Assembly: GCA_018817165.1 (NCBI GenBank)
Contig: JAHITY010000114.1
Location: 81,721-145,720, forward strand
Origin: Candidatus Omnitrophota bacterium
GTDB lineage: Bacteria; Omnitrophota; Gorgyraeia; B26-G9
Direction of reading: 5' to 3'
DNA length: 64,000 nt
The notes under the pieces were generated by a model. The model made no database searches. It worked only from the letters and a program-made list of their open reading frames with translations, and was not told the DNA's origin. Both the position numbers and the translations under genes were made by a program. This document shows positions 2,032 to 35,687 of the stretch, piece by piece (the first letter of the stretch is position 1; every line of letters begins with the position of its first letter).

Positions 2032-2047
2032 ATTTTATTAAGGGTAA

Positions 2048-3960: not shown

Positions 3961-3974
3961 TCGGGGAGGAATTA

Positions 3975-6088: not shown

Positions 6089-6089
6089 A

Positions 6090-7058: not shown

Positions 7059-7076
7059 AATCCAAAAGGAGTTATT

Positions 7077-9570: not shown

Positions 9571-9652
9571 ATAGTTTTGACTGTTTAATGTCCTTAAGTA
9601 AAAGTATTTTATTCGTGATTTAAATCCTAATTTTTGTTATATTTTGGTTTGT

Positions 9653-9682
9653 TTGACAATAATGCGGATAATATGGTATGAT
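9653..9682 (+). promoter_or_regulatory. Sigma70-like promoter TTGACA-N18-TGgTATGAT (extended -10) upstream of the two-component operon
   Basis: Hexamers read directly in the 160-nt intergenic region; about 45 nt upstream of the ATG at 9729. Confidence 0.4.
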
Positions 9683-9728
9683 TTATACCTACCTAAGATA
9701 GTATACAAAAAGATGTTAGAGGAAATAT

Positions 9729-11075
9729 ATGGGAAATCGGTTGATTTTGATACTAGGAGTATTAAGCCTTGTCTTTTTAGTTATTATAGTTAGTTCGCAT
9801 AGCCTTTACCATTATCATCACAGTGTCAGGGATCAAAAGGAAAAAGGCTGGGTTCTTGCCAATACGATTGCTAAATCTTTGGACTTACCGATGCTTGAAG
9901 GCGAAATGACTACTGTTCAGGAAATGTTGGTTACAGTGGGTGAGCTGGAGCATTTAAGACGAATTCATCTTACTGATTCAGCGGGAATCATCCGCTATAG
10001 TTCTGACCCTACCAGAATAAATACTGCTACTGGATCTGATGTTATTAAGCAAGTTTTAGTGAATAAGGTGGAAGTCGATGCTTTTGAGCAAAGAGGCGAT
10101 GATTATATTTTTTCTTTAGCCTTGCCGATATTCAATGAAAAACGCTGTCAGCCTTGTCATGGTGATACAAAAGATTTATTGGGTGTTTTGCGTGTAGGTA
10201 TGGATTGGGTTCCGATCAGAAAAAATTTAATGACTGTTCTTCGGCGGGATGTCATCGTTTCAGTGATTTTTTTTGTGTTTATTGTGGTTATCTCGATTCT
10301 ATTCCAAAGACTGTATAATAATGCGCAGCAGGCATATGTCCATTTGCAGCAGACTCAGCAGCAATTAATAAAAACCGAAAAAATGGCGGCGATTGGCCAG
10401 ATGGCCGCGGCAATCAGTCATGATCTGCGCAATCCTTTGACTGGGATAAAGATGGCCACCTATTATCTGGGCAGTAAAATCGACAAGTCTGAGGTTGAAA
10501 TAAACAGTATTCTTCAGGATATTGAGTTAGAAATCGATTATGCGAGCAATGTTGTAACCAATATCCTAACCTATTCTCGGCCGACCGAGCTTATTTATAC
10601 TATGTCTAATATAAATAAGATAATTGAAGATACAATGCATTTTGTTAATCTTAAAAATCGGGATGAAGGTATTGAACTGATTAAAGAATATGATAATAAT
10701 ATTCCGGAAATTTTATTGGATAATAAGAAAATAAAACAAGTTATTGTTAATTTATTATCTAATTCCATGCAGGCAATGCCTAATGGCGGACAGTTAAAAA
10801 TCTCCACTAAACTAAATCCGGACAATGTCCAGATCAGTATTTCTGATACTGGCAAGGGGATTGAAAAGAGTGTTCAGGAAAGAATTTTCACTCCATTTTT
10901 CACTACAAAGGCCAGAGGGGTTGGTCTGGGGCTTTCGATTGTAAATAATATTGTTCAGAAACATGGGGGTAAAACTGAAGTAATTAGCGAAATCGATAAG
11001 GGCACAGTGTTTATTGTTACTTTGCCTATCTCTAAACAAAGAGATATCATTCAAGAGGATGATCAAGATGGCTGA
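9729..11075 (+). CDS. Membrane sensor histidine kinase; ~150-aa extracytoplasmic domain between two TM helices carries a single CXXCH motif
   Basis: TM1 aa 5-22, TM2 around aa 175-195; CQPCH at nt 10146-10160; HisKA H-box AAISHDLRNPLTGI; HATPase_c G-boxes (DTGKGI, GVGLGLSIV). Confidence 0.8.
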   Translation: MGNRLILILGVLSLVFLVIIVSSHSLYHYHHSVRDQKEKGWVLANTIAKSLDLPMLEGEMTTVQEMLVTVGELEHLRRIHLTDSAGIIRYSSDPTRINTATGSDVIKQVLVNKVEVDAFEQRGDDYIFSLALPIFNEKRCQPCHGDTKDLLGVLRVGMDWVPIRKNLMTVLRRDVIVSVIFFVFIVVISILFQRLYNNAQQAYVHLQQTQQQLIKTEKMAAIGQMAAAISHDLRNPLTGIKMATYYLGSKIDKSEVEINSILQDIELEIDYASNVVTNILTYSRPTELIYTMSNINKIIEDTMHFVNLKNRDEGIELIKEYDNNIPEILLDNKKIKQVIVNLLSNSMQAMPNGGQLKISTKLNPDNVQISISDTGKGIEKSVQERIFTPFFTTKARGVGLGLSIVNNIVQKHGGKTEVISEIDKGTVFIVTLPISKQRDIIQEDDQDG

Positions 11076-11993: not shown

Positions 11994-12380
11994 TTGATTA
12001 TGAGTAAAAAAAACTTTTCTGTATTAGTTGTCGATGATGAGCCCGTTCTTAGGGAAACAGTCAAAAGGATTCTGTTTGATGAAGGTTTTAATGTTTTTGT
12101 TGCCGCGGATGGGAAGTCAGCGATTGAGGTTGCCAAAAATCAGGATTTAGACGCGGCGCTTTTAGATATTAAACTTCCTGATATTAACGGCGTGGAGGTT
12201 TTTGAAAGGATAAAAGTATTGAGGCCGAATCTCAAAGCGGTTATTATGACTGCTTTTGAAATAAAGGAATTGGTTAATCGCGCTTTTGAATTGGGCGCTT
12301 TTGCTTGTTTACATAAGCCTTTTGATATTAAAAAATTATTACATATTTTAAATGAAATTAAACGGGAAAATGAACAATAA
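11994..12380 (+). CDS. Single-domain response regulator (CheY-like REC)
   Basis: VLVVDDEPVLRE acidic pocket, conserved D and K positions, 128 aa. Confidence 0.8.
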   Translation: MIMSKKNFSVLVVDDEPVLRETVKRILFDEGFNVFVAADGKSAIEVAKNQDLDAALLDIKLPDINGVEVFERIKVLRPNLKAVIMTAFEIKELVNRAFELGAFACLHKPFDIKKLLHILNEIKRENEQ

Positions 12381-13803
12381 TTCTGAAAAATCCAAAATTC
12401 TGCTGGTTGATGATGAGCCGGTAATCAGAGAAACTTTATGCTCGATCTTAAAAGATGATGGGTATATTGTTTTAACTGCCGATAGTGGCGCGAAAGCGAT
12501 TGCTTTAGGTGAACAAGGTGATTTTGATGTAGCGATTATTGATTTAAAATTACCGGATACGGAAGGCACTGTTGTCCTGCATAATATTAAGAAAACCAAT
12601 CCCGCGATATGCGCTATTTTAATTACGGCTTATCCGACCACTGAATCAGCGATCCGGGCTATTCAAGAAGAAGCTTATGAATATATCACCAAACCGTTTG
12701 ATATCGGACATGTAAAACTGGTGATCAAGCGCGGATTGGAAGAAAGAAAACTGGAATTTGAAAATAAACGGCTTTTAAGTAATTTAAAAAAAGAAAAATC
12801 AAAACTTGAGACAATGCTTCAGCTTGGACACGCGATGAGTTCAATTCTGAATCTTGATGAATTAAGCGAGTTTATTGTCAATAAAATAACAGCTGTTTTA
12901 AACGCGAAAATCTGTTCATTGATGTTGATTGATCATGAGGATGAAACTTTGGTAATTAAGGCCGCGGTCGGGTTGGATGAGGCGATTATAAAAACAACTC
13001 GGATTAAACTCGGTCAATCGATCAGCGGCTGGGTCGCGCAGCAGGGCGAGCCGGTTTTAATTTCGAATATTGAAGATGATATTCAGTTTGGCCGAACGAA
13101 TCTGCCGAAATATGAAACAAAATCATTGCTCTGTATCCCCTTGAAAGTGAAAGATAATATTTTGGGAGTAATAAATGTCGCTGATAAAACTATTGCTGAA
13201 CAGGAAAATATTTTCACTGAAGAAGATATGCACTTTTTGGCAATAATCTGTAATTACGCGGCAATTGCTTTGGAAAACGCGTTATTGTATGGAGAAGTCA
13301 GAAAGCTCGCGATCACTGACGGTTTGACCAACTTGTATAATCACCGTTATTTTCAGACAAATATAAATTCTGAAGTGATCAGGGTTATGCGTTATCCCCG
13401 GCCTTTGTCTTTGATAATGTTTGACATTGATTTTTTTAAGAACTTTAATGATTCCTATGGGCATCCAATGGGCGATATTGTTTTAACTGAAATTGCTAAA
13501 GTAATTAAAAAAAATGTGCGCAAAGTTGATATCGCTTGTCGTTATGGCGGTGAAGAATTCGCGGTTATTCTGCCGGAAACAAAAATTAAAGAGGCGATAT
13601 TGGTTGCCGAGAAGATTAGGACTACTGTGGAAAATCTACGTTTTAATACTGGCAAGGGGACGAAGAAAGAAAAGATGACTCTCAGCGGAGGAGTTGCTCA
13701 GTTTAAATCAGGAATGACAAAAGTTGATTTTGTTCGCAGCGCGGATGATTCGCTTTATAAAGCGAAAACCGAGGGGAAGAACAAAATTTGTGTCCATTCT
13801 TGA
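12352..13803 (+). CDS. Response regulator REC-GAF-GGDEF diguanylate cyclase (GGEEF active site; RxxD I-site present)
   Basis: ILLVDDEPVIRE REC; GAF-like central region; ...RKVDIACRYGGEEFAVILPET GGDEF motif with I-site 5 residues upstream; start may be 12352 or 12370. Confidence 0.85.
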   Translation: MKLNGKMNNNSEKSKILLVDDEPVIRETLCSILKDDGYIVLTADSGAKAIALGEQGDFDVAIIDLKLPDTEGTVVLHNIKKTNPAICAILITAYPTTESAIRAIQEEAYEYITKPFDIGHVKLVIKRGLEERKLEFENKRLLSNLKKEKSKLETMLQLGHAMSSILNLDELSEFIVNKITAVLNAKICSLMLIDHEDETLVIKAAVGLDEAIIKTTRIKLGQSISGWVAQQGEPVLISNIEDDIQFGRTNLPKYETKSLLCIPLKVKDNILGVINVADKTIAEQENIFTEEDMHFLAIICNYAAIALENALLYGEVRKLAITDGLTNLYNHRYFQTNINSEVIRVMRYPRPLSLIMFDIDFFKNFNDSYGHPMGDIVLTEIAKVIKKNVRKVDIACRYGGEEFAVILPETKIKEAILVAEKIRTTVENLRFNTGKGTKKEKMTLSGGVAQFKSGMTKVDFVRSADDSLYKAKTEGKNKICVHS

Positions 13804-13861: not shown

Positions 13862-14575
13862 ATGAATTTAAAACAACGAATAGAGTTAATAAAAAATGAA
13901 ATTAATCAGGCTGTTATTTGTTCTCAAACCAGTGCGGATAAAGCGCGGATTGTTTGTGTGACAAAATATGCTAAAATTGAAGATGTTATTGATATTATTA
14001 AATTAGGTTATTATGATATCGCTGAGAATTATCTCCAGGAAGTAAATCGGAAAATGCCGCTGCTAAAACAGGCTTTATCCCCAGAGCAGTTTTCCCTGAT
14101 TAACTGGCATTTTATTGGACATCTTCAGAGGAATAAAGCAGAGGCAGTGATTGATTTTTCCCAGCTTATTCAATCAGTGGATAGTTTACGGCTGGCACAG
14201 CGGATTAATCAAATCGCCGCGAAACTAAATAGAAAAGTGAATATTCTTGTTCAGGTAAATATATCCGCGGAAGAGTCAAAATTTGGAATCGGTTTTTCCG
14301 ATGCTGAAAAATTGTTTTTCGAGATTTTAAAACTTGAGAATATAAATATACAGGGAGTAATGGGCATTGGACCACTGGTTGCGGATCCGGAAGATTCTCG
14401 GCCGGGATTTAAACAGCTTAAAATTTTTTATGATAAAATAAATCAGGCTTTATCGATCACTGAATATCCGCTTATGTCGGTTTTATCCATGGGCATGAGC
14501 AGTGATTATATAGTTGCTTTGCAGGAAGGCTCAACAATGGTTCGAATCGGCAGTGCTATTTTTAAAGGAGAATAA
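13862..14575 (+). CDS. yggS: YggS-family PLP homeostasis protein (alanine-racemase-N-like fold)
   Basis: HFIGHLQRNKA signature, 237 aa, immediately upstream of proC as in many genomes. Confidence 0.8.
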   Translation: MNLKQRIELIKNEINQAVICSQTSADKARIVCVTKYAKIEDVIDIIKLGYYDIAENYLQEVNRKMPLLKQALSPEQFSLINWHFIGHLQRNKAEAVIDFSQLIQSVDSLRLAQRINQIAAKLNRKVNILVQVNISAEESKFGIGFSDAEKLFFEILKLENINIQGVMGIGPLVADPEDSRPGFKQLKIFYDKINQALSITEYPLMSVLSMGMSSDYIVALQEGSTMVRIGSAIFKGE

Positions 14576-14580
14576 AAACC

Positions 14581-15378
14581 ATGGTTAAACTGAAAATCGG
14601 CTTGATCGGCGCGGGTAATATGGGGCAGGCAATTATCCAGGGACTTATTGCTGAGAAATCTTATGAGATTTGGATATATGAAAAAGATGAAAGCCGGGCA
14701 AATCTGATAAACCGTAAATATAAATTACAAAAAAAGAAATTAGAACAATTGACAAATGACTCTAATATTATTATTATTTGTGTTAAACCTCAGATCATTG
14801 ATCAGGTTCTTGGTTTGATCAAAAATCAATTAAAGCCCAATCAATTGCTTGTCAGTATCGCGGCGGGAATAAATACCGGGCATATTGAACAGCAGTTGGC
14901 TGAAAAGATTCCGGTCATCAGGGTTATGCCGAATATGCCGGCTTTAATTGGTCAGGGTATTTCCGGGTTTTGTTTGGGCAAATACGCCCGGACAATGCAT
15001 GTAAACCAAGTAATAAAGATATTTTCGGCTGTAGGCAAAACCCTGGCTATTGACGAGTCAAAAATGGATTTGTTTACTGCTGTGGCGGGAAGCGGTCCGG
15101 GATTTATTGCTTATATTACGGATTGTTTGATCAAAGCGGCGGTTAAAGCCGGCTTGGATAAAAAATCAGCAAAGTCTTTGTGTATCAAGACTTTACAGGG
15201 AACAATCAATTTAATTGATCAAACCGGCATCGAGCCCAAAGAATTGGCAAAAAAAGTTGCCTCTAAAGGCGGAACAACTGAAGCGGGTTTAAAGGTTTTA
15301 AAAGCAAAACAAACTGCGGCAATTATTGAACAAACTATAAAAGCCGCGGCTAAAAGAGCAAAGGAGTTAAGTCGATAA
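14581..15378 (+). CDS. proC: Pyrroline-5-carboxylate reductase
   Basis: KIGLIGAGNMGQAIIQGL Rossmann N-terminus, P5CR C-terminal dimerisation domain pattern. Confidence 0.85.
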   Translation: MVKLKIGLIGAGNMGQAIIQGLIAEKSYEIWIYEKDESRANLINRKYKLQKKKLEQLTNDSNIIIICVKPQIIDQVLGLIKNQLKPNQLLVSIAAGINTGHIEQQLAEKIPVIRVMPNMPALIGQGISGFCLGKYARTMHVNQVIKIFSAVGKTLAIDESKMDLFTAVAGSGPGFIAYITDCLIKAAVKAGLDKKSAKSLCIKTLQGTINLIDQTGIEPKELAKKVASKGGTTEAGLKVLKAKQTAAIIEQTIKAAAKRAKELSR

Positions 15379-15383
15379 ATATT

Positions 15384-18221
15384 ATGGAAAATGAATTTGA
15401 CTATAAGCAAACAGTTAATTTGCCGCAAACCGAATTCTCAATGAAGGCAAATCTTCCTAACAAAGAGCCATTGTTGATTGAAAAATGGAATAAGCTGGAT
15501 ATTTATAATAAAATTATTGAGCAGAATAAAAACAAACCGCGGTATATCCTGCATGATGGTCCGCCATATGCTAATGGCAATATTCATATTGGACATGCTT
15601 TAAATAAAATCTTAAAAGACATTATTCTTAAATATAAGACCTTAAGTGGTTTTTCTACTCCATATATTCCGGGTTGGGATTGTCATGGTTTGCCGATTGA
15701 GCATCAATTGTTTAAAAATCTTGGTAAAAGTAAAGATGAAGTCGGCCAAATTGAATTTCGCGAAAAAGCGCATGATTTCGCGATGAAATATGTGGATATT
15801 CAAAAAGATGAATTTAAGCGCTTGGGAGTTTTTGCTGATTGGGATAATCCTTATATAACCTTGCTGCCGGAATATGAAGCTGGGATAATTCGTTCTTTTG
15901 GTAAGCTGGTGGGTAAGGGGTATATTTATAAAGGCAATAAGCCGATAAACTGGTGCTGCGGCTGTGAAACTGCTTTGGCGGAAGCGGAAGTAGAATATGA
16001 TAATCATGTATCGCCTTCGGTTTACGTAAAATTTCCGATTAAGCAAATTAAAAATATTCCGAATAATGAAAATTTTAACAATGATAAAGTGTTTATTCTG
16101 ATCTGGACAACAACGCCTTGGACGCTGATGGGCAATGTTGCTTGCGCGGTTCATCCTGATTTTACTTATGTGCAGTTAAAAGTAAATAACCAGATATTGA
16201 TTATGGAAAAACAGCTGTCATCCTTTGTTATGGAAAAAGCCGGCATAGCTGATTATACAATCATTGGCCAATGCAGGGGGGTGGAGCTGGAAAATATTGA
16301 GTATGAGCATCCTTTTGGTTTGCGTACAGGTAGAGTTGTGCTAGCGGATTATGTTTCCGCGGAAGACGGTTCAGGCGTGGTACATACTGCTCCTGGCTAT
16401 GGCGCGGAAGACTTTCTTACTGGTAAGCGCTATGATCTTGATGTATTAATGCAGGTTGATGATCGAGGCCATTTTTTTGCTAATATTCCAGAGGTCGGAG
16501 GAATGTTTACTTTAAAAGCCAGTAAGTATATTACGGAAAAGTTAAAGGAAAGAGGACTGCTTTTATTTGGCGGAACAATCGAACATTCTTATCCGCATTG
16601 CTGGCGCTGTAAAAAGCCGATAATTTACCGGGCAACTGATCAATGGTTTATGCGGATTGATCATAAAGATTTGCGTGATAATATCCTTAAAGAAATTAAA
16701 AATGTATCTTGGGTGCCGCATTTTGGCGAGAATCGAATTACTAGTATGGTGGAAAACCGGCCGGACTGGTGTCTTTCCCGCCAAAGATTATGGGGTGTGC
16801 CGATTCCGGTTTTTTATTGCCAGAAATGCAATACTCCGGTTTTGGATGAAAAGGTTATTGAAAATTTTGCTAAAATCGTGGAAAAAGAAGGAACCAATGC
16901 TTGGTTCAAGAAAGAGGCAGCTGAGCTATTGCCGCAGGGATATGTTTGTGCTGATTGCGGACATAAAAAGTTTAATAAAGAAAAAGATATTCTCGATGTT
17001 TGGTTTGACTCTGGAGTCAGTCATCAGTCGGTTTTAAGACAAAGAAAGAATTTGGCTTATCCCGCGGATTTATATCTCGAGGGTTCTGATCAGCACAGGG
17101 GTTGGTTTCAGGCGGCATTTATCACTGGAATGGCAATTGAAACTAAAGCGCCGTTTAAGCAGGTTTTAACTCATGGGTTTATTGTGGACGGTGAAGGTAA
17201 AAAAATGTCCAAATCTCGGGGCAATGTTATTGCTCCCCAGAAAGTTATTGATAAATTGGGAGCAGATGTTTTGCGTTTGTGCATTGCTTCTTCGGATTAT
17301 AATGATGATGTCAGAATGTCCCAGGAAAGTATTGATCGAGTAAGCGAGAGTTATCGCAAAATCAGAAATACTTTAAAGTTTACTTTGGGAAATCTTTTTG
17401 ACTATGACCCGGATAAGGATGCGGTTGCTTATGACCAATTATGGGAAATAGATCGCTGGGCGCTTTCAGTTTTGCATTATTTATTGAAACAGGTCACAGT
17501 TGCTTATGATAATTTTATTTTTCATCAAGCCGTTAAGCTGATTTATAATTTTTGCGTTGTTGAAATGAGCTCATTTTATTTGGATGTTTTAAAAGACAGA
17601 TTATATACTTCAGGCGCTAAATCAATAGAGCGCAGATCAGCGCAAACTGTTTTATTTGAGATATTAACCGTATTAACTAAAATTATTTCTCCGATTTTAT
17701 CGTTTACTGCTGAGGAAACCAATGATTTTATTCCGCAGAAAAAGCAGGAGAGTATTTTCTTAAGTAATTGGCCTCAAGTGAATAAAGATTATATTGATGG
17801 CGGATTAAACAGTACCTGGCGTTTATTGTTCAATATTCGTAATTGCGTGTTAAAAGCCTTAGAGCAGGCTCGCGGCGAAAAACTGATTGGCAATAGTTTG
17901 CAGGCTCAAGTGACAATTTGCGCTACAAACAGCGAGGGGATTATTGCTCAGACAATAAATAAGTATAAAGATGAGCTGGCAGCGATATTTATAGTCTCTG
18001 ATGTGCAGATAAACTTGAGTGTTGACAGTCTAGACGCGGAAGTATATAATATTGAATTTGTAAAGAATAATACGGTTGTAGAAAACGGTAAGTTTAATAT
18101 TAAAATTACCAAAGCCAGTGGGGATAAATGTATTCGTTGTTGGAATTATAGCCAGAGTGTGGGACAGAATAAACAGCATGCCCAAATTTGTCAGCGTTGT
18201 ATTGCGGCTATTACAATTTAA
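15384..18221 (+). CDS. ileS: Isoleucine--tRNA ligase (class I, bacterial type with C-terminal zinc-binding region)
   Basis: HIGH motif PPYANGNIHIGHALN, KMSKS motif, editing domain, C-terminal CxxC...CxxC. Confidence 0.95.
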   Translation: MENEFDYKQTVNLPQTEFSMKANLPNKEPLLIEKWNKLDIYNKIIEQNKNKPRYILHDGPPYANGNIHIGHALNKILKDIILKYKTLSGFSTPYIPGWDCHGLPIEHQLFKNLGKSKDEVGQIEFREKAHDFAMKYVDIQKDEFKRLGVFADWDNPYITLLPEYEAGIIRSFGKLVGKGYIYKGNKPINWCCGCETALAEAEVEYDNHVSPSVYVKFPIKQIKNIPNNENFNNDKVFILIWTTTPWTLMGNVACAVHPDFTYVQLKVNNQILIMEKQLSSFVMEKAGIADYTIIGQCRGVELENIEYEHPFGLRTGRVVLADYVSAEDGSGVVHTAPGYGAEDFLTGKRYDLDVLMQVDDRGHFFANIPEVGGMFTLKASKYITEKLKERGLLLFGGTIEHSYPHCWRCKKPIIYRATDQWFMRIDHKDLRDNILKEIKNVSWVPHFGENRITSMVENRPDWCLSRQRLWGVPIPVFYCQKCNTPVLDEKVIENFAKIVEKEGTNAWFKKEAAELLPQGYVCADCGHKKFNKEKDILDVWFDSGVSHQSVLRQRKNLAYPADLYLEGSDQHRGWFQAAFITGMAIETKAPFKQVLTHGFIVDGEGKKMSKSRGNVIAPQKVIDKLGADVLRLCIASSDYNDDVRMSQESIDRVSESYRKIRNTLKFTLGNLFDYDPDKDAVAYDQLWEIDRWALSVLHYLLKQVTVAYDNFIFHQAVKLIYNFCVVEMSSFYLDVLKDRLYTSGAKSIERRSAQTVLFEILTVLTKIISPILSFTAEETNDFIPQKKQESIFLSNWPQVNKDYIDGGLNSTWRLLFNIRNCVLKALEQARGEKLIGNSLQAQVTICATNSEGIIAQTINKYKDELAAIFIVSDVQINLSVDSLDAEVYNIEFVKNNTVVENGKFNIKITKASGDKCIRCWNYSQSVGQNKQHAQICQRCIAAITI

Positions 18222-18308
18222 TTTATTTGTATAATTCAAGATTGATGATCAATTTAGCAGTTGAAATTATAGGATGATATTTCAGCCGTGGCGAAAGGAG
18301 CAATCGTA

Positions 18309-18692
18309 GTGGATAAAAAGGATGCTGGTGAATTTAAAAAAAGACTTGTTGATTTAAGAACTAAAATCTCCGATGAAATACGGCAAATCGGCGGAGGTAC
18401 CCTTAAACAATCACAAAGGGATGCTAGTGGAGATTTGTCCGCGTATACTTTTCATATGGCTGATGTAGCTAGTGATAGTTTTGAACGGGAACGTTCTTGG
18501 GATAGAGCTAGTGTTGAACAAAAAGTATTGTTCAGCATCGACGATGCCTTGAAAAAAATTGACGATGGAATATATGGTCAATGTGAAGGTTGCGAGAAAA
18601 AAATCAATAAAGAAAGACTTAAAGCTATCCCGTACGCGAAGTTTTGTCGTAGTTGCAAAGAAGGTTTTGAAAAAAGTAATAAAACAATTTAA
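18309..18692 (+). CDS. DksA/TraR-family C4 zinc-finger protein
   Basis: CEGCEKKI...CRSCK four-Cys finger at C-terminus with coiled-coil N-terminus; start placed at GTG 18309, 8 nt downstream of SD AAAGGAG (track ORF begins at GTG 18288). Confidence 0.7.
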   Translation: MDKKDAGEFKKRLVDLRTKISDEIRQIGGGTLKQSQRDASGDLSAYTFHMADVASDSFERERSWDRASVEQKVLFSIDDALKKIDDGIYGQCEGCEKKINKERLKAIPYAKFCRSCKEGFEKSNKTI

Positions 18693-18703
18693 GAACCTTT
18701 CTG

Positions 18704-19159
18704 ATGAGTAAAATATTCTTCATTGTTTTCTTAATTTTCTTTGATCAAGTTTCTAAATTAGCTGTATTAAAAAGGCTGCATCAGAACGATAGTATTCCGG
18801 TTATTAGTAATATTTTTCATATAACCCTGGTCTATAATACTGGTTCTGCTTTTGGCGCTTTTCGTGAGCATAATTGGTTATTATCCTACATTTCGGTATT
18901 CGCGATAATCATGATTCTTTATATGCTTGTGCGCAGACCGAGGTTCTCGTCTAATATATATATGCATTTATGGCAATGGGCTTTATTGTTTATTTTATGC
19001 GGCGCTACGGGAAATCTTATCGACAGGGTAAGGCTGGGCTATGTTGTTGATTTTCTTGACTTCCGCTTTTGGCCTGTTTTTAATCTGGCGGATTCTTTTA
19101 TTACTTGCGGAGTTTTTGTGCTTTTATTTTTGCTGTTTAATAAAAAAGCGATTGAATAA
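18704..19159 (+). CDS. lspA: Lipoprotein signal peptidase II
   Basis: NTGSAFG and FNLADSFI conserved blocks, 4 TM, classic ileS-lspA linkage. Confidence 0.85.
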   Translation: MSKIFFIVFLIFFDQVSKLAVLKRLHQNDSIPVISNIFHITLVYNTGSAFGAFREHNWLLSYISVFAIIMILYMLVRRPRFSSNIYMHLWQWALLFILCGATGNLIDRVRLGYVVDFLDFRFWPVFNLADSFITCGVFVLLFLLFNKKAIE

Positions 19160-19161
19160 TT

Positions 19162-19896
19162 ATGCACCCCATTCTTTTTTCCTTTTTTAGGATACATATC
19201 TATTCTTATGGTTTAATGGTAGCTTTGGGAATTGTTCTGGCGGTTTATTTGATTGAACGTGATGCTATAAAGAATAATTTACCTAAAGATGCGATCGTTG
19301 ATCTGATTTTTTGGGTTATAATTTGGGGATTGGTTGGGGCAAGATTGTTTTATGTATTGCTTTATCCTGATGTATATCTGCATTCTCCTCAGGATATTCT
19401 AAAAATATACCAAGGCGGGTTGGTGTTTCACGGCAGTCTGATCTTTGGTTCAATAGCGGCGTTTATAAATTTTAAAGCCAAAAAACTTCCGGTATTAAAA
19501 ACCTTGGATCTGTTAATGCTTTATCTGCCGCTGGCGCATGCTTTTGGCCGGATTGGTTGTTTTTTTAATGGATGTTGTTATGGTAAAGTAACTGATTTAG
19601 CCTGGGGGATTATATTTCCAGGGCAGATCCAAGCTGTTCACCCTACTCAGCTTTATTCCGCTTTTTTGTTATTGATCCTTTTTTGGGGATTGTTTTTAGT
19701 GCGGCAAAAACAAGTATTTGCTGGTCAGATATTCTGTTTATATCTGATTTTTTATGGACTGATCAGGTTTTTTATTGAATTTGTCCGGGATAATCCGATT
19801 TTTGCTTGGGGCATGAGTATTTATCAATATATAAGCTTAATTTTGATATGCGCGGGTATTTTCGGCTATATTAGGCTAAAGAAAGCAAAGCAATGA
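19162..19896 (+). CDS. lgt: Prolipoprotein diacylglyceryl transferase
   Basis: Lgt signature GRIGCFFNGCCYG, multi-TM, 244 aa. Confidence 0.85.
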   Translation: MHPILFSFFRIHIYSYGLMVALGIVLAVYLIERDAIKNNLPKDAIVDLIFWVIIWGLVGARLFYVLLYPDVYLHSPQDILKIYQGGLVFHGSLIFGSIAAFINFKAKKLPVLKTLDLLMLYLPLAHAFGRIGCFFNGCCYGKVTDLAWGIIFPGQIQAVHPTQLYSAFLLLILFWGLFLVRQKQVFAGQIFCLYLIFYGLIRFFIEFVRDNPIFAWGMSIYQYISLILICAGIFGYIRLKKAKQ

Positions 19897-20822
19897 ATGC
19901 AAATAATAAAATTTTAAATTTAAAAATCGGGGAAAGTGATACTATCGGCAGACTGGATAAATGTCTGGCTGATAAATTATCCAAAGAATTATCCCGTTCG
20001 GATATTAAAAGACTTATCGATCAAGGTAATGTTAGTTTAAATGATTTGATTGTTAAGCCAAATCATAAAATAAAACTCGGCGATCGGATTACGCTAATTT
20101 TAGAGGAAAAGGCGGCATTAGAAGGCTTGGTTGAGGCTAATATTCCGCTGGATATAATTTTTGAAGATAAGTATATTATTGTGGTTAATAAGCCAGCTGG
20201 TTTGGTTGTGCATCCTGCGGCAGGTCATTTTAGTGATACTTTGGTTAATGCTTTGATCTTTTATTGTAAGAATCTTTCTGATCTGAATGGGCCGATGAAG
20301 CTGGGGATTGTTCATCGCTTGGATAAGGATACATCAGGATTATTGATTATCGCTAAAGACAATAAAACGCATAGGCATTTGGCTAATCAATTTAAGAAAC
20401 ATACTATTGAAAAAACCTATGTAGCAATTGTTCAAGGTAGTGTTAATTATGATGAGGGTATAATTGACGCGCCTTTATCGCGCAATCTGTTTAATCGCAA
20501 GAAAATGAGTGTTTCGCATGCCAGTAGCCGGCAGGCAATTACCCGGTATAAAGTGCTTAAACGTTTCGCTAATTTAACTCTTTTGGAAGTGTATCCTCAA
20601 ACCGGTAGAACTCATCAAATTCGAGTCCATATGGCTCATCTAGGATATCCTATATTAGGGGATAGTACGTATAATAAGTCTAAAGGAATTAAAGGCTTAA
20701 TCAGTCGGCAGGCTTTACATGCTGAAAAAATTCGATTTAAACATCCGCATACAGCTAAAATGGTTGAATTTAAAGCAAAAATTCCTAATGATATGCAGAG
20801 TGTGATAAAAAGTATGAGTTAG
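19893..20822 (+). CDS. rluD: RluA-family 23S rRNA pseudouridine synthase with N-terminal S4 domain (RluD-like)
   Basis: HRLDKDTSGLLIIAK catalytic Asp motif, S4-like N-terminus. Confidence 0.8.
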   Translation: MNANNKILNLKIGESDTIGRLDKCLADKLSKELSRSDIKRLIDQGNVSLNDLIVKPNHKIKLGDRITLILEEKAALEGLVEANIPLDIIFEDKYIIVVNKPAGLVVHPAAGHFSDTLVNALIFYCKNLSDLNGPMKLGIVHRLDKDTSGLLIIAKDNKTHRHLANQFKKHTIEKTYVAIVQGSVNYDEGIIDAPLSRNLFNRKKMSVSHASSRQAITRYKVLKRFANLTLLEVYPQTGRTHQIRVHMAHLGYPILGDSTYNKSKGIKGLISRQALHAEKIRFKHPHTAKMVEFKAKIPNDMQSVIKSMS

Positions 20823-20879: not shown

Positions 20880-20908
20880 TTGCAATAAAAAGCTTTAGAT
20901 GATATACT
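20880..20908 (+). promoter_or_regulatory. Sigma70-like promoter TTGCAA-N17-TATACT upstream of the CheC-like gene
   Basis: Hexamers and 17-nt spacer counted in sequence; SD AAGGGGG 5 nt before the ATG at 20937. Confidence 0.45.
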
Positions 20909-20936: not shown

Positions 20937-21596
20937 ATGAAGAAAATCATAACTGAGCATGATATAATTACGGAAGTAGGCAGTATTTGCGCTTGTAATT
21001 CTACCCATGTTTTTTCTCAAATGATTAACCGTTCTCTCCAACTTGAGTCTCCAGTCCTTCAAGTCGTAAAATTTAAAGATGTAGATAATATTTTAAAAAG
21101 TAAAGATAATATTGTTATTGGGGTGCATTGTCAGATATTGTCCGGGGTTTTAGGACAAGTTTCTTTATTGTTTAAAGAAAAAAGCGCTTTTGAATTTGTC
21201 TCAATTTTTGCCGCAAAAGGAAAACAATCAGCTGGTTTTTTAACTCAATTAGGAGTTTCGACAATTAAAGAAATCGGTAATGTGGTTATTTCCGCTTATT
21301 CCGGAGCAATGAGTTTGCTGATGGATGTGTCGGTTATTCCTTCAATCCCAGTATTGTCCAGCGGACCTTTAAAAGATGTTATAAAATTCGGGATGATGAA
21401 TCTAAACGAAGAAGGAAAAGTTTATGTGCATACAATGACTTTTCGCGATGAACAGCGAAAAATAAACGGGTCATTTTATTTAGTGCTTGAACCGGAAACA
21501 GTTAAAAAAATAGTGGCGATGATGCGCAAGCAGCTGACTAATTTAAATAATCCAAAGCGAAAAATTGATGGGGCAAAAAAATATGAAAGCGCATAA
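20937..21596 (+). CDS. CheC/CheX/FliY-family protein (putative CheY-P phosphatase); second E-x2-N site intact, first degenerate
   Basis: Two CheC-like repeats: ITEVGSICACNST...ESP and IKEIGNVVISAYSGAMSLLMDVSVIPSIP (EIGN...P matches the CheC active-site pattern). Confidence 0.55.
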   Translation: MKKIITEHDIITEVGSICACNSTHVFSQMINRSLQLESPVLQVVKFKDVDNILKSKDNIVIGVHCQILSGVLGQVSLLFKEKSAFEFVSIFAAKGKQSAGFLTQLGVSTIKEIGNVVISAYSGAMSLLMDVSVIPSIPVLSSGPLKDVIKFGMMNLNEEGKVYVHTMTFRDEQRKINGSFYLVLEPETVKKIVAMMRKQLTNLNNPKRKIDGAKKYESA

Positions 21597-21846
21597 TATA
21601 ATGGAAGATATTGTAGAAGAATATCTTAAAGAAATAATTTCTGCTGACAATAAAGTGTGTAATTGTGAGCTTTGCCATGATAAAATGTTTGCTGAAATTT
21701 TGAGTAATATCCCGGCTAAATATGTTACTTCAGAAACCGGGGCAATGTATGCTGTGATCGAACAGGTTCGTGTTGAGCAATCATCAGTTATTTTAAAAGA
21801 ATTAGTTAAAGCGATGAAAAATTTAAAGCCGCATCCTAAGGCATAA
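21583..21846 (+). CDS. Standalone ComFB-like small protein (cyclic-dinucleotide receptor family)
   Basis: NIMEDIVEEYL...VCNCELCHDKMFAEILSNIPAKYV matches the ComFB CxC..C..D...P.YV signature; start ambiguous (21565/21583/21601). Confidence 0.55.
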   Translation: MKAHNIMEDIVEEYLKEIISADNKVCNCELCHDKMFAEILSNIPAKYVTSETGAMYAVIEQVRVEQSSVILKELVKAMKNLKPHPKA

Positions 21847-21881
21847 TTTATTTTTTAATAATATAAATGGAGTGTTTTTAA

Positions 21882-22982
21882 ATGAAAGCATGCAATATCA
21901 TGGAGGATATTACAAAGAAGTATCTTGATGAGATGCTGTCTATGCGTTTTGACATATGCACTTGTGATATTTGCAAGCAAGATATTATTGCTTTTGCTTT
22001 AACTCGGATCCCTCCTAAATATGTTACTGCTGAGTCTGCTTTCATGGATACTTTAATTGAACAAGCCCGCACAGAAAATTCTCAGCTGATATTAAAAGAA
22101 CTGGTTATGGCAATCCGAACAATAACGGCAAATCCGAAACATGAAGAAGGGCAGGATCGGGATAAAGCGTATCATTTGTTAATGAAGCAGATTAAAGATG
22201 ACCGGGGTGTGGATTTTTCTCATTATCGCGATCGAGTTTTAAAACGGAGGATTGCTTTGCGGATGCGGGCGAGAAATGTGCAAACATATTCTGAATACCT
22301 CCAGGTATTAATTCATAGCCCTGAAGAGTATGAGGATTTATTTGATGTTTTAACGATTAATGTTTCTGCGTTTTTTCGGGATAAGGTCGTGTGGGATAAG
22401 CTAAAACGAGATGTTTTTCCCGCGCTTATCGCTAAGAAATTAAAAGAGCATGGATTGCGGAGAATAAGGGTCTGGAGTGCTGGGTGTTCGCATGGAGAAG
22501 AGCCATATTCATTAGCGATTATGCTTTATGAATTGACAGAAAAAATGCCGGAAAAAATAAAAATAGAAATTTATGGCAGTGATATTGATCGAGAGTGTTT
22601 AAAACAAGCAATGCTTGGTCAATATGATAGTGAAAGTGTTAAAGGTCTAAGTGCTTATCAGTTGCGGCGGTTTTTTATTCCGGTTGGTGATAAATATCAG
22701 ATTGTTCCGCATGTAAAGGAGCTTGTTCAGTTTAAAAAACGGAATCTGATTCATGATCCGGCTTTTCCGGGCGTAGATATGGTTACTTGCCGCAATGTAT
22801 TTATCTATTTTAACCGCAGTTTGCAAGAGCATCTTATCATGAAATATCATGGGGCTTTAAATGATGAAGGTTATTTTGTTATGGGTACATCAGAAAATCT
22901 TTTGGGTGAAGCCAGACAGGTTTTTAGCGGAGTAGACAGCAGTTATCGAATTTATCAAAAAATCCCAATGAAACGGTATTGA
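21882..22982 (+). CDS. cheR: ComFB-like N-terminal domain fused to CheR-type chemotaxis protein methyltransferase
   Basis: N-terminus NIMEDITKKYL...ICTCDICKQDIIAFALTRIPPKYV (ComFB pattern, paralogous to upstream gene); C-terminal CheR blocks FFRD, VWSAGCSHGEEPYSLAIML, RNVFIYF. Confidence 0.8.
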   Translation: MKACNIMEDITKKYLDEMLSMRFDICTCDICKQDIIAFALTRIPPKYVTAESAFMDTLIEQARTENSQLILKELVMAIRTITANPKHEEGQDRDKAYHLLMKQIKDDRGVDFSHYRDRVLKRRIALRMRARNVQTYSEYLQVLIHSPEEYEDLFDVLTINVSAFFRDKVVWDKLKRDVFPALIAKKLKEHGLRRIRVWSAGCSHGEEPYSLAIMLYELTEKMPEKIKIEIYGSDIDRECLKQAMLGQYDSESVKGLSAYQLRRFFIPVGDKYQIVPHVKELVQFKKRNLIHDPAFPGVDMVTCRNVFIYFNRSLQEHLIMKYHGALNDEGYFVMGTSENLLGEARQVFSGVDSSYRIYQKIPMKRY

Positions 22983-23039: not shown

Positions 23040-23090
23040 ATGTCTATAAAAATAAACAGTTGGTCTGTTTGTTTTTATAGACATTTTTTA
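23040..23090 (+). terminator. Rho-independent terminator after cheR: 20-bp stem (1 mismatch), loop TTGGT, T-run
   Basis: ATGTCTATAAAAATAAACAG-ttggt-CTGTTTGTTTTTATAGACAT followed by TTTTTT. Confidence 0.6.
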
Positions 23091-23185: not shown

Positions 23186-23647
23186 ATGATTATCAGGCAG
23201 GCTAAGTTGTTGGATGCTGATTCAATTGGGCAGCTTATTTACGAGTTTTATGAGGAAAGTTTATCAGCATATGATCTTGGTTTTGAATCAGATGCGGTAA
23301 AGCAGACAATCAAGCAAATAATAAGCAGTAATATTGCTTTTGTCAGTGAAGAATCTGAGCGAATTAGCGGAGTGATTGCCGGGGTGATTAATTCATCAAT
23401 TTTTGACTATCGCCAGACAGTGGCTTATGAGCTGATCTGGTTTGTTAGTAAGCCTTATCGCCGGGGCAGGGCGGGTATGATGTTGCTGAAAAAATTTGAA
23501 CAGCATTGTGAAAATATGGGCGCATCTAAAATTGTTATGAAACATATGGAAAATCTTAATGCATCTGATATGAATCAGCTTTATGAAAGAAAAAAATATA
23601 AACTCATGGAGCTGGAGTATATAAAGAATATTAAGGTTGCAGTTTAA
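23186..23647 (+). CDS. GNAT-family N-acetyltransferase
   Basis: Motif A-like ...IWFVSKPYRRGRAGMMLL..., 153 aa. Confidence 0.65.
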   Translation: MIIRQAKLLDADSIGQLIYEFYEESLSAYDLGFESDAVKQTIKQIISSNIAFVSEESERISGVIAGVINSSIFDYRQTVAYELIWFVSKPYRRGRAGMMLLKKFEQHCENMGASKIVMKHMENLNASDMNQLYERKKYKLMELEYIKNIKVAV

Positions 23648-24044: not shown

Positions 24045-24740
24045 ATGGCTGCAAATAAAAGAAGGTATTCACGCTTAGATTCTGTGATAAATGGCACATT
24101 TCTCTCCAGAGAAGATAATGCTGTTGGAGACATGATGCTGACTAATTTTAGCCGTGACGGATTTAAAGCCGCACTCAGCCGTCCGATAGTTCCCGGGAGA
24201 ATTATCCAGTTTCAAATGAGATATCCTAATCAGACAATGCCTATTTTTGCCACAGGTAAAGTAATGTGGGTTAAATCAAAAAATCAGGATTTAACGTATG
24301 GTTTTGACGCGGGGATACATCTTATTGAGCCAGACGCGATAATTCGTCAAAAAGCCAGTGAATATGATTTTGATAATTGGCATATCAAACAAGTTGCTGA
24401 CTTTGCCAAGCAAAGAGGTTATCTGGCTAAGCATTTTCCTGATCAGGTTTTTAAATTATCCTGTTTTGTGCCCAGCGCCTTATTAATATATTTTATTTTA
24501 GGAGCCATTGTTTCTTTTTTGAATGTAAATATGGCTTTAATATACTCCGCGAGTATTATGGCTTATTTTTTATCAATTTTTGTCACAACTGCAATTTGGC
24601 TATTAACTGAAAAGAGCCATAAAACATTGATTGAAAAAATATCAGTGATTTTTCCAGTTAGTGCTGCGCGGATTTCTGCACATATAAGCTACGGTGTATT
24701 TTTCTTGCGTGGTTTATTCTCAAAAAAGGAATATAACTAG
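24045..24740 (+). CDS. PilZ-domain protein with C-terminal transmembrane segments
   Basis: RRYSRL (RxxxR) ... NFSRDGFKAAL (D/NxSxxG-like) ... GKVMWVK; two hydrophobic helices near C-terminus. Confidence 0.55.
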   Translation: MAANKRRYSRLDSVINGTFLSREDNAVGDMMLTNFSRDGFKAALSRPIVPGRIIQFQMRYPNQTMPIFATGKVMWVKSKNQDLTYGFDAGIHLIEPDAIIRQKASEYDFDNWHIKQVADFAKQRGYLAKHFPDQVFKLSCFVPSALLIYFILGAIVSFLNVNMALIYSASIMAYFLSIFVTTAIWLLTEKSHKTLIEKISVIFPVSAARISAHISYGVFFLRGLFSKKEYN

Positions 24741-34193: not shown

Positions 34194-35687
34194 TTGCATA
34201 AGGGGAAAATGAAAGAAAATATAAAAAAAATAGTTTTAATTAATCCACCTTGGATTTTTGCGCATGAACGGGAGATAGTCCTTTCGCAAAATTTAGGTTT
34301 GGGCTATTTGACGGCATATCTATTAAAACATGGTCATCAGGTTGAGATTATTGATGCTCTTTGTGAGGGTATTAATAATTATCAAAAGATAAAAAGTAAT
34401 GATCAGCCATTTTTACAAGTAGGTTTAGATTATCAGCAAATAGTCAAAAGAATCCCTTTGGACACAGATTTTATCGGGATTTCCGCTCCCTTTACCAATA
34501 ATGCGAAAATAGTCAAGCAATTAGCACATGTAATAAAAGAAAGTTTCCCGGAGATTCCAATTATTATGGGTGGGGTATATCCGTCATTGACTCCTTATGA
34601 TGCATTTTGCGAAAAGATTGAATATTATGTCATCGGCGAGGGGGAAAAGGCTTTGCTTGATTTGGTTAATGGGCAAGAGCCAAATCAGATTAAAGGAGTG
34701 CTTTGTTTTGGTAAGTCTAAAGGCTTTGAAGCTGGACAAATAATTGAAAATTTAGATCAGCTGCCTTTTCCGGCACGCGATAAATTGCCGATGAGTAAAT
34801 ATGTTAATTTTCATTCTCCCCGCAGGCTGCAACTTAAAACCGGATCAATAATCACTTCACGCGGCTGTCCGTTTGACTGTACTTTTTGTTCAATTCATCG
34901 GATTACCGGTTATAAATGGCGAATGCGCTCAGCGGAAAATGTTTTAGCGGAAATTCGGGAATTAGTTGAGAAATATGGGGTAGAGCATATTGAGTTTGAG
35001 GATGATAATCTTACTCTTGATAAGCAGAGGGCATTGGCAATATTTGAGGGGCTTATAAAAATAAACAAAGAACTTAAGCCTTTATCTTGGTCAACGCCCA
35101 ATGCAGTGCGGATTGATACGCTAGATCGGGATTTATTGGAAAAAATCAAGCAGTCGAATTGCCTGTCTTTGAATTTCGCGATTGAGTCTGGGGATCCGGA
35201 ATTATTAAAAAAGATGAATAAAAAACTTGATTTGAATACTGTCTTAGAAATGACAAGATTATGCAAAGCATTAAATATTAAAATGAATGCTTTTTTTATG
35301 ATCGGTTATCCCGGAGAAGACCAGGCAAGTTTTCAGAAAACTTTAAGTTTTATTAAGGAAATAAAAATAATCGGCGTGGACAATGTTTATACGACCATCA
35401 CGCGCGCTTATCCTGGTACAAAGCTCTATGAATTTTGTGAAAAAAATAATTATATTACAATTAAAGATAAGCAAATAAACACTTATTTGGGCAATGCGAT
35501 TACTCCGGAAAATCTGATTGTTACTCCGGATTTTGATAAAAAAGTTTTGCTTAAGAGATTAGCTTTGGTGGAAAAAGCGGTATATCCATGGTATCTGCGA
35601 TTTTATCATCGGTACGCGTATTTGATAAAAAAAATAATTCCAATTAATATGATAAAATATATAAAAAAGTTGATTGATGAAAAATAA
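34194..35687 (+). CDS. B12-binding-domain radical SAM enzyme (class B)
   Basis: N-terminal B12-binding-like region, TSRGCPFDCTFCSI CxxxCxxC; conserved DQLPFPARD block shared with paralog at 44321. Confidence 0.8.
   Translation: MHKGKMKENIKKIVLINPPWIFAHEREIVLSQNLGLGYLTAYLLKHGHQVEIIDALCEGINNYQKIKSNDQPFLQVGLDYQQIVKRIPLDTDFIGISAPFTNNAKIVKQLAHVIKESFPEIPIIMGGVYPSLTPYDAFCEKIEYYVIGEGEKALLDLVNGQEPNQIKGVLCFGKSKGFEAGQIIENLDQLPFPARDKLPMSKYVNFHSPRRLQLKTGSIITSRGCPFDCTFCSIHRITGYKWRMRSAENVLAEIRELVEKYGVEHIEFEDDNLTLDKQRALAIFEGLIKINKELKPLSWSTPNAVRIDTLDRDLLEKIKQSNCLSLNFAIESGDPELLKKMNKKLDLNTVLEMTRLCKALNIKMNAFFMIGYPGEDQASFQKTLSFIKEIKIIGVDNVYTTITRAYPGTKLYEFCEKNNYITIKDKQINTYLGNAITPENLIVTPDFDKKVLLKRLALVEKAVYPWYLRFYHRYAYLIKKIIPINMIKYIKKLIDEK

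Follow-up and report, generated by a model that had tools for sequence, protein, structure and literature searches.

The 64,000-nt stretch of DNA analyzed here (the window) derives from a metagenome-assembled genome (MAG) of Candidatus Omnitrophota (GCA_018817165.1, contig JAHITY010000114.1, positions 81,721–145,720, forward strand) and contains three close-packed plus-strand genes, which code for a CheC-type phosphatase homologue, a small stand-alone ComFB protein, and a protein in which a ComFB domain is fused to the N-terminus of a CheR-type methyltransferase (Table 1). We interpret the fusion protein as a methyltransferase of methyl-accepting chemotaxis proteins (MCPs) which receives regulatory input through its ComFB domain, encoded in an operon of an Omnitrophota chemosensory pathway, and assign to this reading a probability of roughly 0.5. 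Control of an MCP methyltransferase by cyclic di-GMP (c-di-GMP) and/or by dimerization appears to be the most likely role of the fused domain. ComFB-CheR as an architecture is not new, being recorded both in the literature and in database annotation. Samir et al. (PNAS 2025) name ComFB-CheR fusions of Omnitrophota, with UniProt A0A1G1PT98 as an example, and list the architecture alone, in main text and SI figures, and report neither gene context nor residue analysis nor experiments on the fusions (PMC12448109); the protein described here comes from the same phylum and has the same ComFB-CheR_N-CheR architecture. All four local proteins carry GenBank annotation (NCBI), and the fusion is 100% identical to an entry from a Candidatus Omnitrophota MAG which NCBI names ComFB family protein. 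What goes beyond the catalogued architecture is the cheC-comFB-fusion operon, the tandem A- and B-type paralogues, the neighborhoods of pilus and che operons, and a Cys3-His site. A first-pass annotation of the sequence, which had proposed that a cyclic dinucleotide gates receptor methylation, stands as regards the domains, the paralogy of the two ComFB domains, and CheC, and also in having reported c-di-GMP genes and no further che genes; it has to be qualified in that the ligand-contact residues are kept in part and that the fusion is not new.

The stand-alone protein matches the Pfam family PF10719 (ComFB, IPR019657; gathering score, 25) over positions 1–83 of the 83-position profile (54.3 bits, E = 1.5e-14), and the N-terminal domain of the fusion does so with 57.7 bits (E = 1.3e-15); the ComFB, CheR_N and CheR matches of both open reading frames (ORFs) exceed the gathering scores. 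The prediction of one stand-alone ComFB and another at the N-terminus of CheR is thus borne out, and the motifs on which it was based, N-I-M-E-D-I, C-x-C-x-x-C and P-x-K-Y-V, occur in both sequences. The two domains share 41 of 86 residues (48%; BLASTP, E = 7e-26), close to the initial estimate of about 45%. Searches of the PDB retrieved ComFB of Bacillus subtilis (4WAI; E = 4e-6 with the single sequence in phmmer and 2e-9 with a profile of the fused domain), and the profile also matched the cyanobacterial c-di-GMP receptor CdgR/SyComFB (8HJA; E = 1.2e-3). The ComFB assignment rests on these sequence profiles; a Foldseek search with the full-length model returned methyltransferases only. The N-terminus of the fusion is distinct from the helical subdomain of CheR, for which it might have been mistaken, as CheR_N is recognized as a separate domain further downstream (amino acids (aa) 97–147).

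In the CheR part, the motifs FFRD (with Arg166), WSAGCSHGEE, SDID, and CRNVFIYF (with Tyr309) are intact. Arg166, Arg122, Arg127, Trp198, Ser199, Gly205, Glu207, Asp234, and Cys303-Arg-Asn-Val306 are invariant in 46 family members, of which at least 90% also possess Tyr309, Arg123, Ala200, Gly201, Glu206, and Asp236. CheR of B. subtilis (5FTW) is the best sequence match (phmmer, E = 4e-34), with the motifs aligning residue by residue (HMMER), besides CheR1 of Pseudomonas aeruginosa (E = 9e-33) and CheR of Salmonella (1AF7; E = 4e-29). The arginines of CheR_N align with the alpha-2 arginines of a provisional reference sequence of Salmonella CheR. The loop of the beta-subdomain lacks the Gly-rich insertion that binds the NWETF pentapeptide; it is shorter than in the provisional Salmonella sequence and resembles the short loop of B. 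subtilis CheR, and because of this likeness in sequence the enzyme is filed as a putative pentapeptide-independent type. An AlphaFold2 (AF2) model of the fusion (mean pLDDT, 87.7; pTM, 0.67) had 5FTW as its top Foldseek match (TM-score, 0.70), further matches being 5Y4R, 5Y4S, 5XLY, and 1AF7; target-normalized TM-scores against CheR structures ranged from 0.60 to 0.88 and were highest for the entries of P. aeruginosa CheR1, with up to 0.85 upon normalization to the 5Y4S chains. By the sequence matches and the model, the two-domain architecture and the fold of CheR are confirmed.

The start codon of the stand-alone comFB gene lies 14 nt within the 3' end of cheC, and 35 nt separate it from the fusion gene. 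Because of this overlap, the short gap, and a terminator-like hairpin following the fusion gene, we consider cheC-comFB-comFB::cheR a single transcription unit; its layout indicates that cheC heads the predicted operon and is not a separately transcribed neighbor. The earlier description, in contrast, had given the CheC gene a promoter of its own. The hairpin is the likely end of the operon, with the reservation that it is a pattern match and that such sites in the region are not more numerous than expected from shuffled sequence; the promoter candidate upstream of cheC is weak, as promoter-like sites in the region occur at chance level and the scan is uninformative. The Pfam model CheC, which comprises 38 residues, gave a weak match to the first gene product (E = 0.07). 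Comparison with a Pfam-verified CheC of Geobacter (che operon of locus L049, the source of all Geobacter Che queries) resulted in a phmmer E-value of 1.3e-30, and the NCBIfam models CheC_Thtogales (E = 8e-20; positions 7–198 of 201, i.e., 192 positions; under the equivalog cut-off) and FliY (E = 2e-11) matched as well. The second active-site motif, S-x3-E-x2-N-x22-P, is intact (aa 108–138), and the first site is degenerate (E-x2-S). Judged by these matches and its NCBI name, the protein is a true CheC homologue, as its initial description as CheC-like had implied; with one intact phosphatase motif, phosphorylated CheY (CheY-P) would be its expected substrate.

Almost all of the 120 best database relatives of the fusion have the same three Pfam domains, and among these 120 each one with a phylum assignment by its source belongs to Omnitrophota; the ComFB-linker-CheR_N segment forms about twenty clusters at 50% identity. 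A metagenome scan seeded with an N-terminal alignment yielded 62 loci, to which single-homologue look-ups added five; 58 distinct loci (designated by L numbers) remained after de-duplication, and neighborhoods were tallied for de-duplicated loci with BLAST-defined anchors. A contig scan based on a full-length alignment, with patterns drawn from the CheR core, contained one Omnitrophota fusion (L002) among its 80 listed loci. In the clade of the window (at least 58% identity), the fusion gene always follows the RluD block, and cheC is present in most members. The distant majority of fusions are 35–50% identical to that of the window. For 42 distinct loci, more than 1 kb of sequence lies upstream; 21 of these contain a divergent operon that resembles type IV pilus and type II secretion systems and codes for pseudopilins, PilMN, PilO, an ATPase of the MshEN type, and a secretin. 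At L108, the fusion gene is divergent from a complete che operon (positions 1017–9808, minus strand) in the order CheC-CheA-CheC-(FtsA/PilM-like)-ComFB-CheY-CheD-CheB-CheC-CheW, and in four further distinct loci (L095, L098, L100/L102, L128) MCP genes, once together with cheW, are located 4–7 kb from the fusion gene. The claim that CheC is the only chemotaxis protein encoded near CheR therefore holds for the window and is of local validity, as relatives adjoin a full che operon, MCP or CheW genes, or the pilus-like operon; the apparent orphan status of the window's CheR reflects local gene order, not a trait of the family.

In nine distinct loci, a second ComFB-CheR paralogue (B-type) immediately follows the first (A-type). 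Such tandems, the paralogues of which are 37–38% identical to the window's fusion, occur at L084 (10001–12213) and also at L094, L099, L101, L104, L106, L109, L113, L123, and L125. The CheR catalytic residues, the SAM-binding motifs, and the basic alpha-2 helix are kept in the B-type copies just as in the A-type ones. Their ComFB domains, which Pfam no longer recognizes, have retained the Cys3-His ligands and have lost the PAKYVT segment and most of the ligand-contact residues.

Residues of B. subtilis ComFB (BsComFB), in the numbering of Samir et al., were mapped via a HMMER alignment to 4WAI and tabulated for 50 A-type fusions, 12 B-type fusions, and the stand-alone copies. The fused domain of the window possesses, in its own numbering, Asn5, Glu8, Cys26/Cys28/Cys31, Asp34, Ala37, Arg42, Tyr47, and Val48, which correspond to Asn4, Glu7, Cys25/27/30, Asp33, Ala36, position 41 (Arg), Tyr46, and Val47 of BsComFB. 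The cysteine triad is invariant in 46 fusions, and no stand-alone or B-type copy lacks it. Cys88, the fourth Zn ligand of BsComFB, is absent from the fused domain, which closes with an N-P-x-H motif (aa 84–87 of the fusion) that recurs in the related loci. The histidine of this motif, His87, is kept in 48 of 50 A-type and in 12 of 12 B-type domains, two residues off the position of Cys88, and is the probable fourth ligand of a candidate Cys3-His site. Of the dimer-interface set Asn4/Glu7/Asp33/Asn40/Tyr46, all but Asn40, where Thr is found, are retained in the fusion; in the stand-alone protein Asn, Glu, and Tyr are retained, with Lys at 33 and Ser at 40. Among the c-di-GMP contacts Asp33/Asn40/Arg-Lys41/Ala36/Leu37/Val47/Tyr55, five of seven are kept or conservatively replaced in the fusion, position 37 being aromatic (Phe, as compared to Leu37 in BsComFB), and the stand-alone protein retains Ala36, Val47, and Tyr55 besides the triad Cys26/28/31. 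Family-wide, Asp33 is found in 32 of 45 fused domains, and Arg or Lys occupies position 41 in 39 of 45. We count the retention of Asp33, Ala36, Arg/Lys41, Tyr46, and Val47 in favor of a ligand-responsive input to CheR.

Several observations weigh against such an input to receptor methylation. Asn40 is replaced by Thr and Tyr55 by Asp in the fused domain of the window; of 45 fused domains, 38 carry Ser at position 40, and most have His, Arg, or, less often, Gln at position 55. The stand-alone protein has Lys in place of Asp33, Glu in place of Leu37, Ser in place of Asn40, and Asn in place of Lys41. Samir et al. caution that certain proteins in the ComFB family may not bind nucleotides (PMC12448109). 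The AF2 output comes without inter-domain confidence, so that a coupling of ComFB and CheR_N has no structural backing. Genes for MCPs, CheA, CheW, CheB, or CheD were not found in the 64-kb window in phmmer searches with the Geobacter Che proteins and in Pfam scans of ORFs of at least 110 aa outside positions 13862–20822, in agreement with the first-pass annotation, which had noted that cheA, cheW, cheB, and mcp genes are missing nearby. Finally, the pilus-like operon is missing in the clade to which the window belongs; there, a housekeeping block with rluD as its last gene precedes the locus.

The main rival explanation, to which we grant a real if minor chance, takes the fused ComFB for a ligand-independent, Zn-stabilized dimerization or targeting module, with cyclic dinucleotides having no direct role. 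Such a module might render CheR dimeric, as A/B heterodimers in the tandem loci or through the fusion and the stand-alone ComFB in the window, or might tether CheR to a partner and so replace the pentapeptide tether that is lacking in this type of CheR. Conservation is indeed strictest at metal and dimer-interface residues, namely the Cys triad, His87, Asn5, Glu8, and Tyr47, and the ligand residues at 40 and 55 have been replaced; the B-type copies, retained in nine loci with CheR intact, point in the same direction, as does the beta-subdomain without a pentapeptide-binding loop. ComFB proteins, moreover, are dimers or tetramers in solution (PMC12448109). On the other hand, Asp33, Arg/Lys41, Ala36, and Val47 are still found in most A-type domains, and c-di-GMP is bound by all four ComFB proteins assayed so far. 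Binding of c-di-GMP and an effect on motility are described for ComFB proteins of four phyla; those of Bacillus, Thermoanaerobacter, Vibrio, and Treponema bind c-di-GMP, and some of them also cyclic di-AMP (c-di-AMP) (PMC12448109). Exchanges D33A and N40A in BsComFB weakened c-di-GMP binding approximately 75-fold (to 12.6 μM) and 30-fold (to 5 μM), respectively, and wild-type ComFB of T. brockii binds c-di-GMP at 8 μM (PMC12448109), which argues that Ser or Thr at position 40 need not abolish binding. Because the D33A and N40A proteins still bind, the partial loss of contact residues is compatible with relevant binding, yet no assurance of it.

The stand-alone ComFB occurs in four loci of the clade only (the window, L086, L087, and L082) and is missing in the members L088, L089, L083, L001, and L090. 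In a neighbor-joining (NJ) tree, its sister group is formed by the fused domains of this clade, and the tree together with the identity values indicates that it arose by a clade-specific local duplication of the fused domain. The ComFB proteins encoded in the che operons of L108, L140, and L145 are not sister to it in this tree. Orthology with the che-operon ComFB of L108 was considered and is ruled out by the identities and the tree, which is based on a short alignment and has modest support. The L108 protein itself (4216–4479) carries a complete BsComFB-like set of ligand residues. We think it improbable that the stand-alone ComFB of the window is a fortuitous neighbor of the fusion, acting as an independent cyclic-dinucleotide receptor on a target of its own, e.g. 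a transcription factor, as proposed for CdgR-DevH. A duplicate that is absent from several clade members and evolves faster than its neighbors (51% identity between the window and L087, where the fusions share 67% and the CheC proteins 73%) would fit such a role, but the gene is translationally coupled to cheC and directly precedes the fusion gene, and its product has lost three ligand-contact residues. In addition, the unrelated ComFB in the che operon of L108 argues that the linkage of ComFB and che genes arose more than once. At L082 (561–6053), the CheC-ComFB-fusion-GNAT-PilZ cluster is inverted with respect to the RluD/Lgt/LspA/IleRS block and adjoins a DDE transposase gene, and hence has moved as one unit, which also speaks against chance proximity.

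A gene for a protein with a PilZ domain and a hydrophobic, presumably transmembrane (TM), half (PilZ-TM) is located downstream of the fusion in the window and recurs in five of seven clade relatives examined, being present in L001, L086, L088, L103, and L082 and degraded in L087. Of 35 distinct loci for which downstream sequence exists, 6 contain this gene, all within the window's clade, and it was therefore rejected as a universal partner of the fusion. Recruitment of CheR to a substrate other than an MCP, such as the PilZ-TM protein or some constituent of the type IV pilus-like machine, in an operon outside the classical chemosensory pathway, could account for this neighbor, for the lack of MCP, CheA, and CheW genes in the window, and for the pilus-like operon which most family members adjoin in place of che genes. 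We regard it as an unlikely explanation, since neither the basic helix for receptor binding nor any catalytic residue departs from the canonical pattern, cheC is part of the same operon, the L108 fusion adjoins complete CheA/W/B/D/Y/C genes and MCP genes lie near several loci, and the PilZ-TM neighbor is limited to one clade. To our knowledge, moreover, a non-MCP substrate has not been described for any enzyme of the CheR family. Both a non-MCP substrate and an unrelated role of the stand-alone ComFB are less likely than the Zn-stabilized dimerization module.

If the fusion is a ComFB-regulated MCP methyltransferase, as we prefer to read it, the cheC-comFB-comFB::cheR operon would belong to an Omnitrophota chemosensory pathway, the remaining genes of which would lie outside the window. 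The fusion would be an active, pentapeptide-independent glutamate O-methyltransferase of the CheR type, acting on MCP-type receptors, and the Zn-binding (Cys3-His) ComFB would serve as its regulatory module, which probably dimerizes and binds c-di-GMP, possibly c-di-AMP. A ligand on ComFB would alter how the protein oligomerizes, or how accessible the neighboring receptor-binding helix of CheR_N is, and the state of ComFB would thereby couple the level of the second messenger to receptor methylation, i.e., to adaptation. The stand-alone ComFB most likely pairs with the fused domain, either as a heterodimer partner or as a competitor; CheC would dephosphorylate the CheY of the pathway, and the phylum-wide output would probably be the type IV pilus-like machine encoded beside most family members. 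What the analysis shows are the identities of the domains, the conservation of catalytic and Zn residues, the layout of the operon, and the neighborhoods of the genes; binding of a ligand, the sense in which regulation runs, pairing of ComFB domains by heterodimerization, and a pilus output are what we infer here.

The logic of this proposal is that of P. aeruginosa, where c-di-GMP-bound MapZ inhibits CheR1 and hence MCP methylation (PMC6370697), rebuilt in cis. The CheR part is homologous to CheR1, complexes of CheR1 and MapZ (5XLY, 5Y4R) are among the top Foldseek matches of the model, and the principle of a c-di-GMP receptor which acts directly on a CheR methyltransferase and alters MCP methylation would be common to both systems. 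In Pseudomonas, however, a separate PilZ protein acts in trans and is inhibitory, whereas the candidate receptor described here is a ComFB domain in cis; the likeness concerns the way of working, not family membership. With BsComFB (4WAI) and CdgR/SyComFB (8HJA) the fusion shares a domain family tied to motility and type IV pili, and with BsComFB in particular the Zn triad Cys25/27/30, the dimer residues Asn4/Glu7/Tyr46, and several ligand residues. It differs from BsComFB in the replaced Asn40 and Tyr55 and in having His87 for Cys88 as the likely fourth metal ligand. Moreover, ComFB and CdgR are stand-alone proteins or possess a helical N-terminal extension, whereas the ComFB of the fusion is attached to an enzyme, and such targets as are described for them are transcriptional. 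We know of no direct molecular target of any ComFB domain. The short beta-subdomain loop is common to B. subtilis CheR (5FTW), and, as in the CheC/CheD systems of the B. subtilis type, CheC is co-encoded with the window's fusion, and CheD is encoded in the related L108 operon as well. B. subtilis CheR, in contrast, is devoid of an N-terminal sensor domain, and the B. subtilis pathway drives flagella. With MapZ and CheR1 as a precedent in trans, it is reasonable to suppose that the fused ComFB relays a cyclic-dinucleotide signal to chemoreceptor methylation.

A more far-reaching version of this proposal, which we advance tentatively and would not hold to be the probable case, is that ComFB-CheR represents the first cyclic-dinucleotide receptor domain inside an adaptation enzyme, with a ligand at the ComFB-ComFB interface switching CheR. 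The interface might be that of a homodimer, of an A/B heterodimer of tandem paralogues, or of the fusion and a stand-alone copy as in the window, and the switch would tune the chemosensory steering of type 4a pili in ultra-small, possibly host-attached Omnitrophota. Type 4a pili are reportedly nearly universal in Omnitrophota and have been proposed to function in attachment and surface motility; flagella and chemotaxis go unmentioned in the respective paper (PMC10066038).

Table 1. Positions of the cheC-comFB-comFB::cheR locus and of further features within the window
Feature	Positions	Strand	Details
Sigma-70-like promoter candidate	20880–20908	+	TTGCAA-17-TATACT with extended TG; within the 114 nt that separate rluD from cheC
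cheC	20937–21596	+	219 aa; CheC-family CheY-P phosphatase homologue; MBU1044896.1, NCBI 'chemotaxis protein CheC'
Stand-alone ComFB	21583–21846	+	87 aa; PF10719 match; MBU1044897.1
comFB::cheR fusion, whole gene	21882–22982	+	366 aa; ComFB, CheR_N, and CheR by Pfam; MBU1044898.1
ComFB domain of fusion	21882–22145	+	aa 1–88; Pfam match aa 5–85
CheR_N all-helical subdomain	22170–22322	+	aa 97–147; PF03705, E = 5e-12; holds basic helix LKRRIALRMRAR
CheR S-adenosylmethionine (SAM)-dependent methyltransferase domain	22359–22940	+	aa 160–353; PF01739, E = 4e-53
Terminator-like hairpin	23040–23084	+	20-bp AT-rich stem, then T run; 58 nt past the fusion stop codon
GNAT acetyltransferase	23186–23647	+	153 aa, Pfam; between fusion and PilZ-TM genes
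PilZ-TM protein	24045–24740	+	231 aa; Pfam PilZ, E = 4e-6; RRYSR, NFSRDG; hydrophobic C-terminal half
REC-HD-GYP	6033–7058		phosphodiesterase, HD ... HHHERIDGTGYP
REC-GAF-GGDEF	12352–13803		GGEEF and RxxD I-site
Single-domain PilZ	61033–61407		124 aa; RKFVR and DLSEGG motifs

The surroundings of the locus were surveyed by a Pfam scan of ORFs of at least 110 aa outside positions 13862–20822, the latter segment being identified by synteny with L001. Upstream are the dcw cluster, the REC-HD-GYP gene, a PilT ATPase gene, genes of two histidine kinases, a REC protein and the REC-GAF-GGDEF protein, and, immediately before cheC, a housekeeping block coding for an alanine racemase-like protein, pyrroline-5-carboxylate reductase, IleRS, DksA, LspA, Lgt, and RluD. 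Downstream follow the GNAT and PilZ-TM genes, BrkB and MscS genes, and a long exopolysaccharide/O-antigen cluster, with the single-domain PilZ gene near the end of the window; the insertion of a GNAT gene between fusion and PilZ-TM genes is confined to the window and L082. Both PilZ proteins carry the canonical RxxxR and D/NxSxxG motifs. The HD-GYP, GGDEF, and PilZ genes reported by the first-pass annotation are thus present, and we count these genes of c-di-GMP turnover and reception, with their intact motifs, in favor of a c-di-GMP input; of the c-di-GMP circuit proposed there, the tie of these genes to the fusion consists in proximity only. The diguanylate cyclase block (two histidine kinases, REC, and REC-GAF-GGDEF) is found upstream in two of seven clade relatives, with housekeeping genes between block and locus, and its extra single REC gene is absent in one relative.

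Some further observations concern these genes and the related loci. The REC-HD-GYP gene and that of a PilT-family retraction ATPase (TIGR01420, E = 1e-132), together at 6033–8174, directly follow ftsA, where the dcw cluster ends. The single-domain PilZ protein is of the same stand-alone type as MapZ, with no established tie to the fusion. Four genes of B12-binding radical SAM proteins (34194–35687, 35842–37353, 44321–45799, and 45924–47375) are located inside the polysaccharide cluster (Wza/Wzz/Wzx/Wzy, glycosyltransferase, methyltransferase), suggesting an unusual sugar modification. At L084 (9223–9855, minus strand), a 210-aa protein combines a MerR-type helix-turn-helix (HTH) domain (aa 3–56) with the N-terminal cleavage/methylation motif of prepilins and the body of a pseudopilin. 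In no fewer than 21 distinct loci of Omnitrophota, the gene of this MerR-HTH-pseudopilin protein comes first in the pilus-like operon that diverges from ComFB-CheR; a DNA-binding domain ahead of a pilin signal is an odd combination. The che operon of L108 includes a gene (4480–6648) for a 722-aa FtsA/PilM-like protein of the actin fold. L083 (10001–15089) contains two non-adjacent ComFB-CheR copies about 3 kb apart, with an SNase-like gene and a gene of a Na/H exchanger fused to EIIA of the phosphotransferase system between them. At L128 (9464–11095), the ComFB-CheR frame is open for about 180 codons before the conserved start (543 aa in total), which may reflect an additional domain at the N-terminus or else an artefact of ORF calling.

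ComFB has recently been established as the third widespread family of c-di-GMP receptors. As the architecture is catalogued and control of CheR by c-di-GMP is known from Pseudomonas, the value of the fusion is that of a test system rather than of a discovery: with ComFB joined to an enzyme whose activity, MCP methylation, is simple to assay in vitro, the effect of ligand binding to ComFB can be studied here more easily than elsewhere. ComFB affects swimming in B. subtilis and Shewanella, where an effect on chemotaxis was not excluded (PMC12448109). On the more far-reaching version of our proposal, the fusion would act as a 'Rosetta stone', predicting that the methylation system of chemotaxis is also a target of stand-alone ComFB proteins, and the fusion together with the repeated linkage of ComFB and che genes suggests that it may be; the prediction would extend to B. 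subtilis ComFB, which has a c-di-GMP-dependent motility phenotype without a known target. For the uncultured, pilus-dependent Omnitrophota nanobacteria, the recurring linkage of ComFB with che genes and with pilus genes provides a concrete hypothesis of how surface behavior may be controlled.

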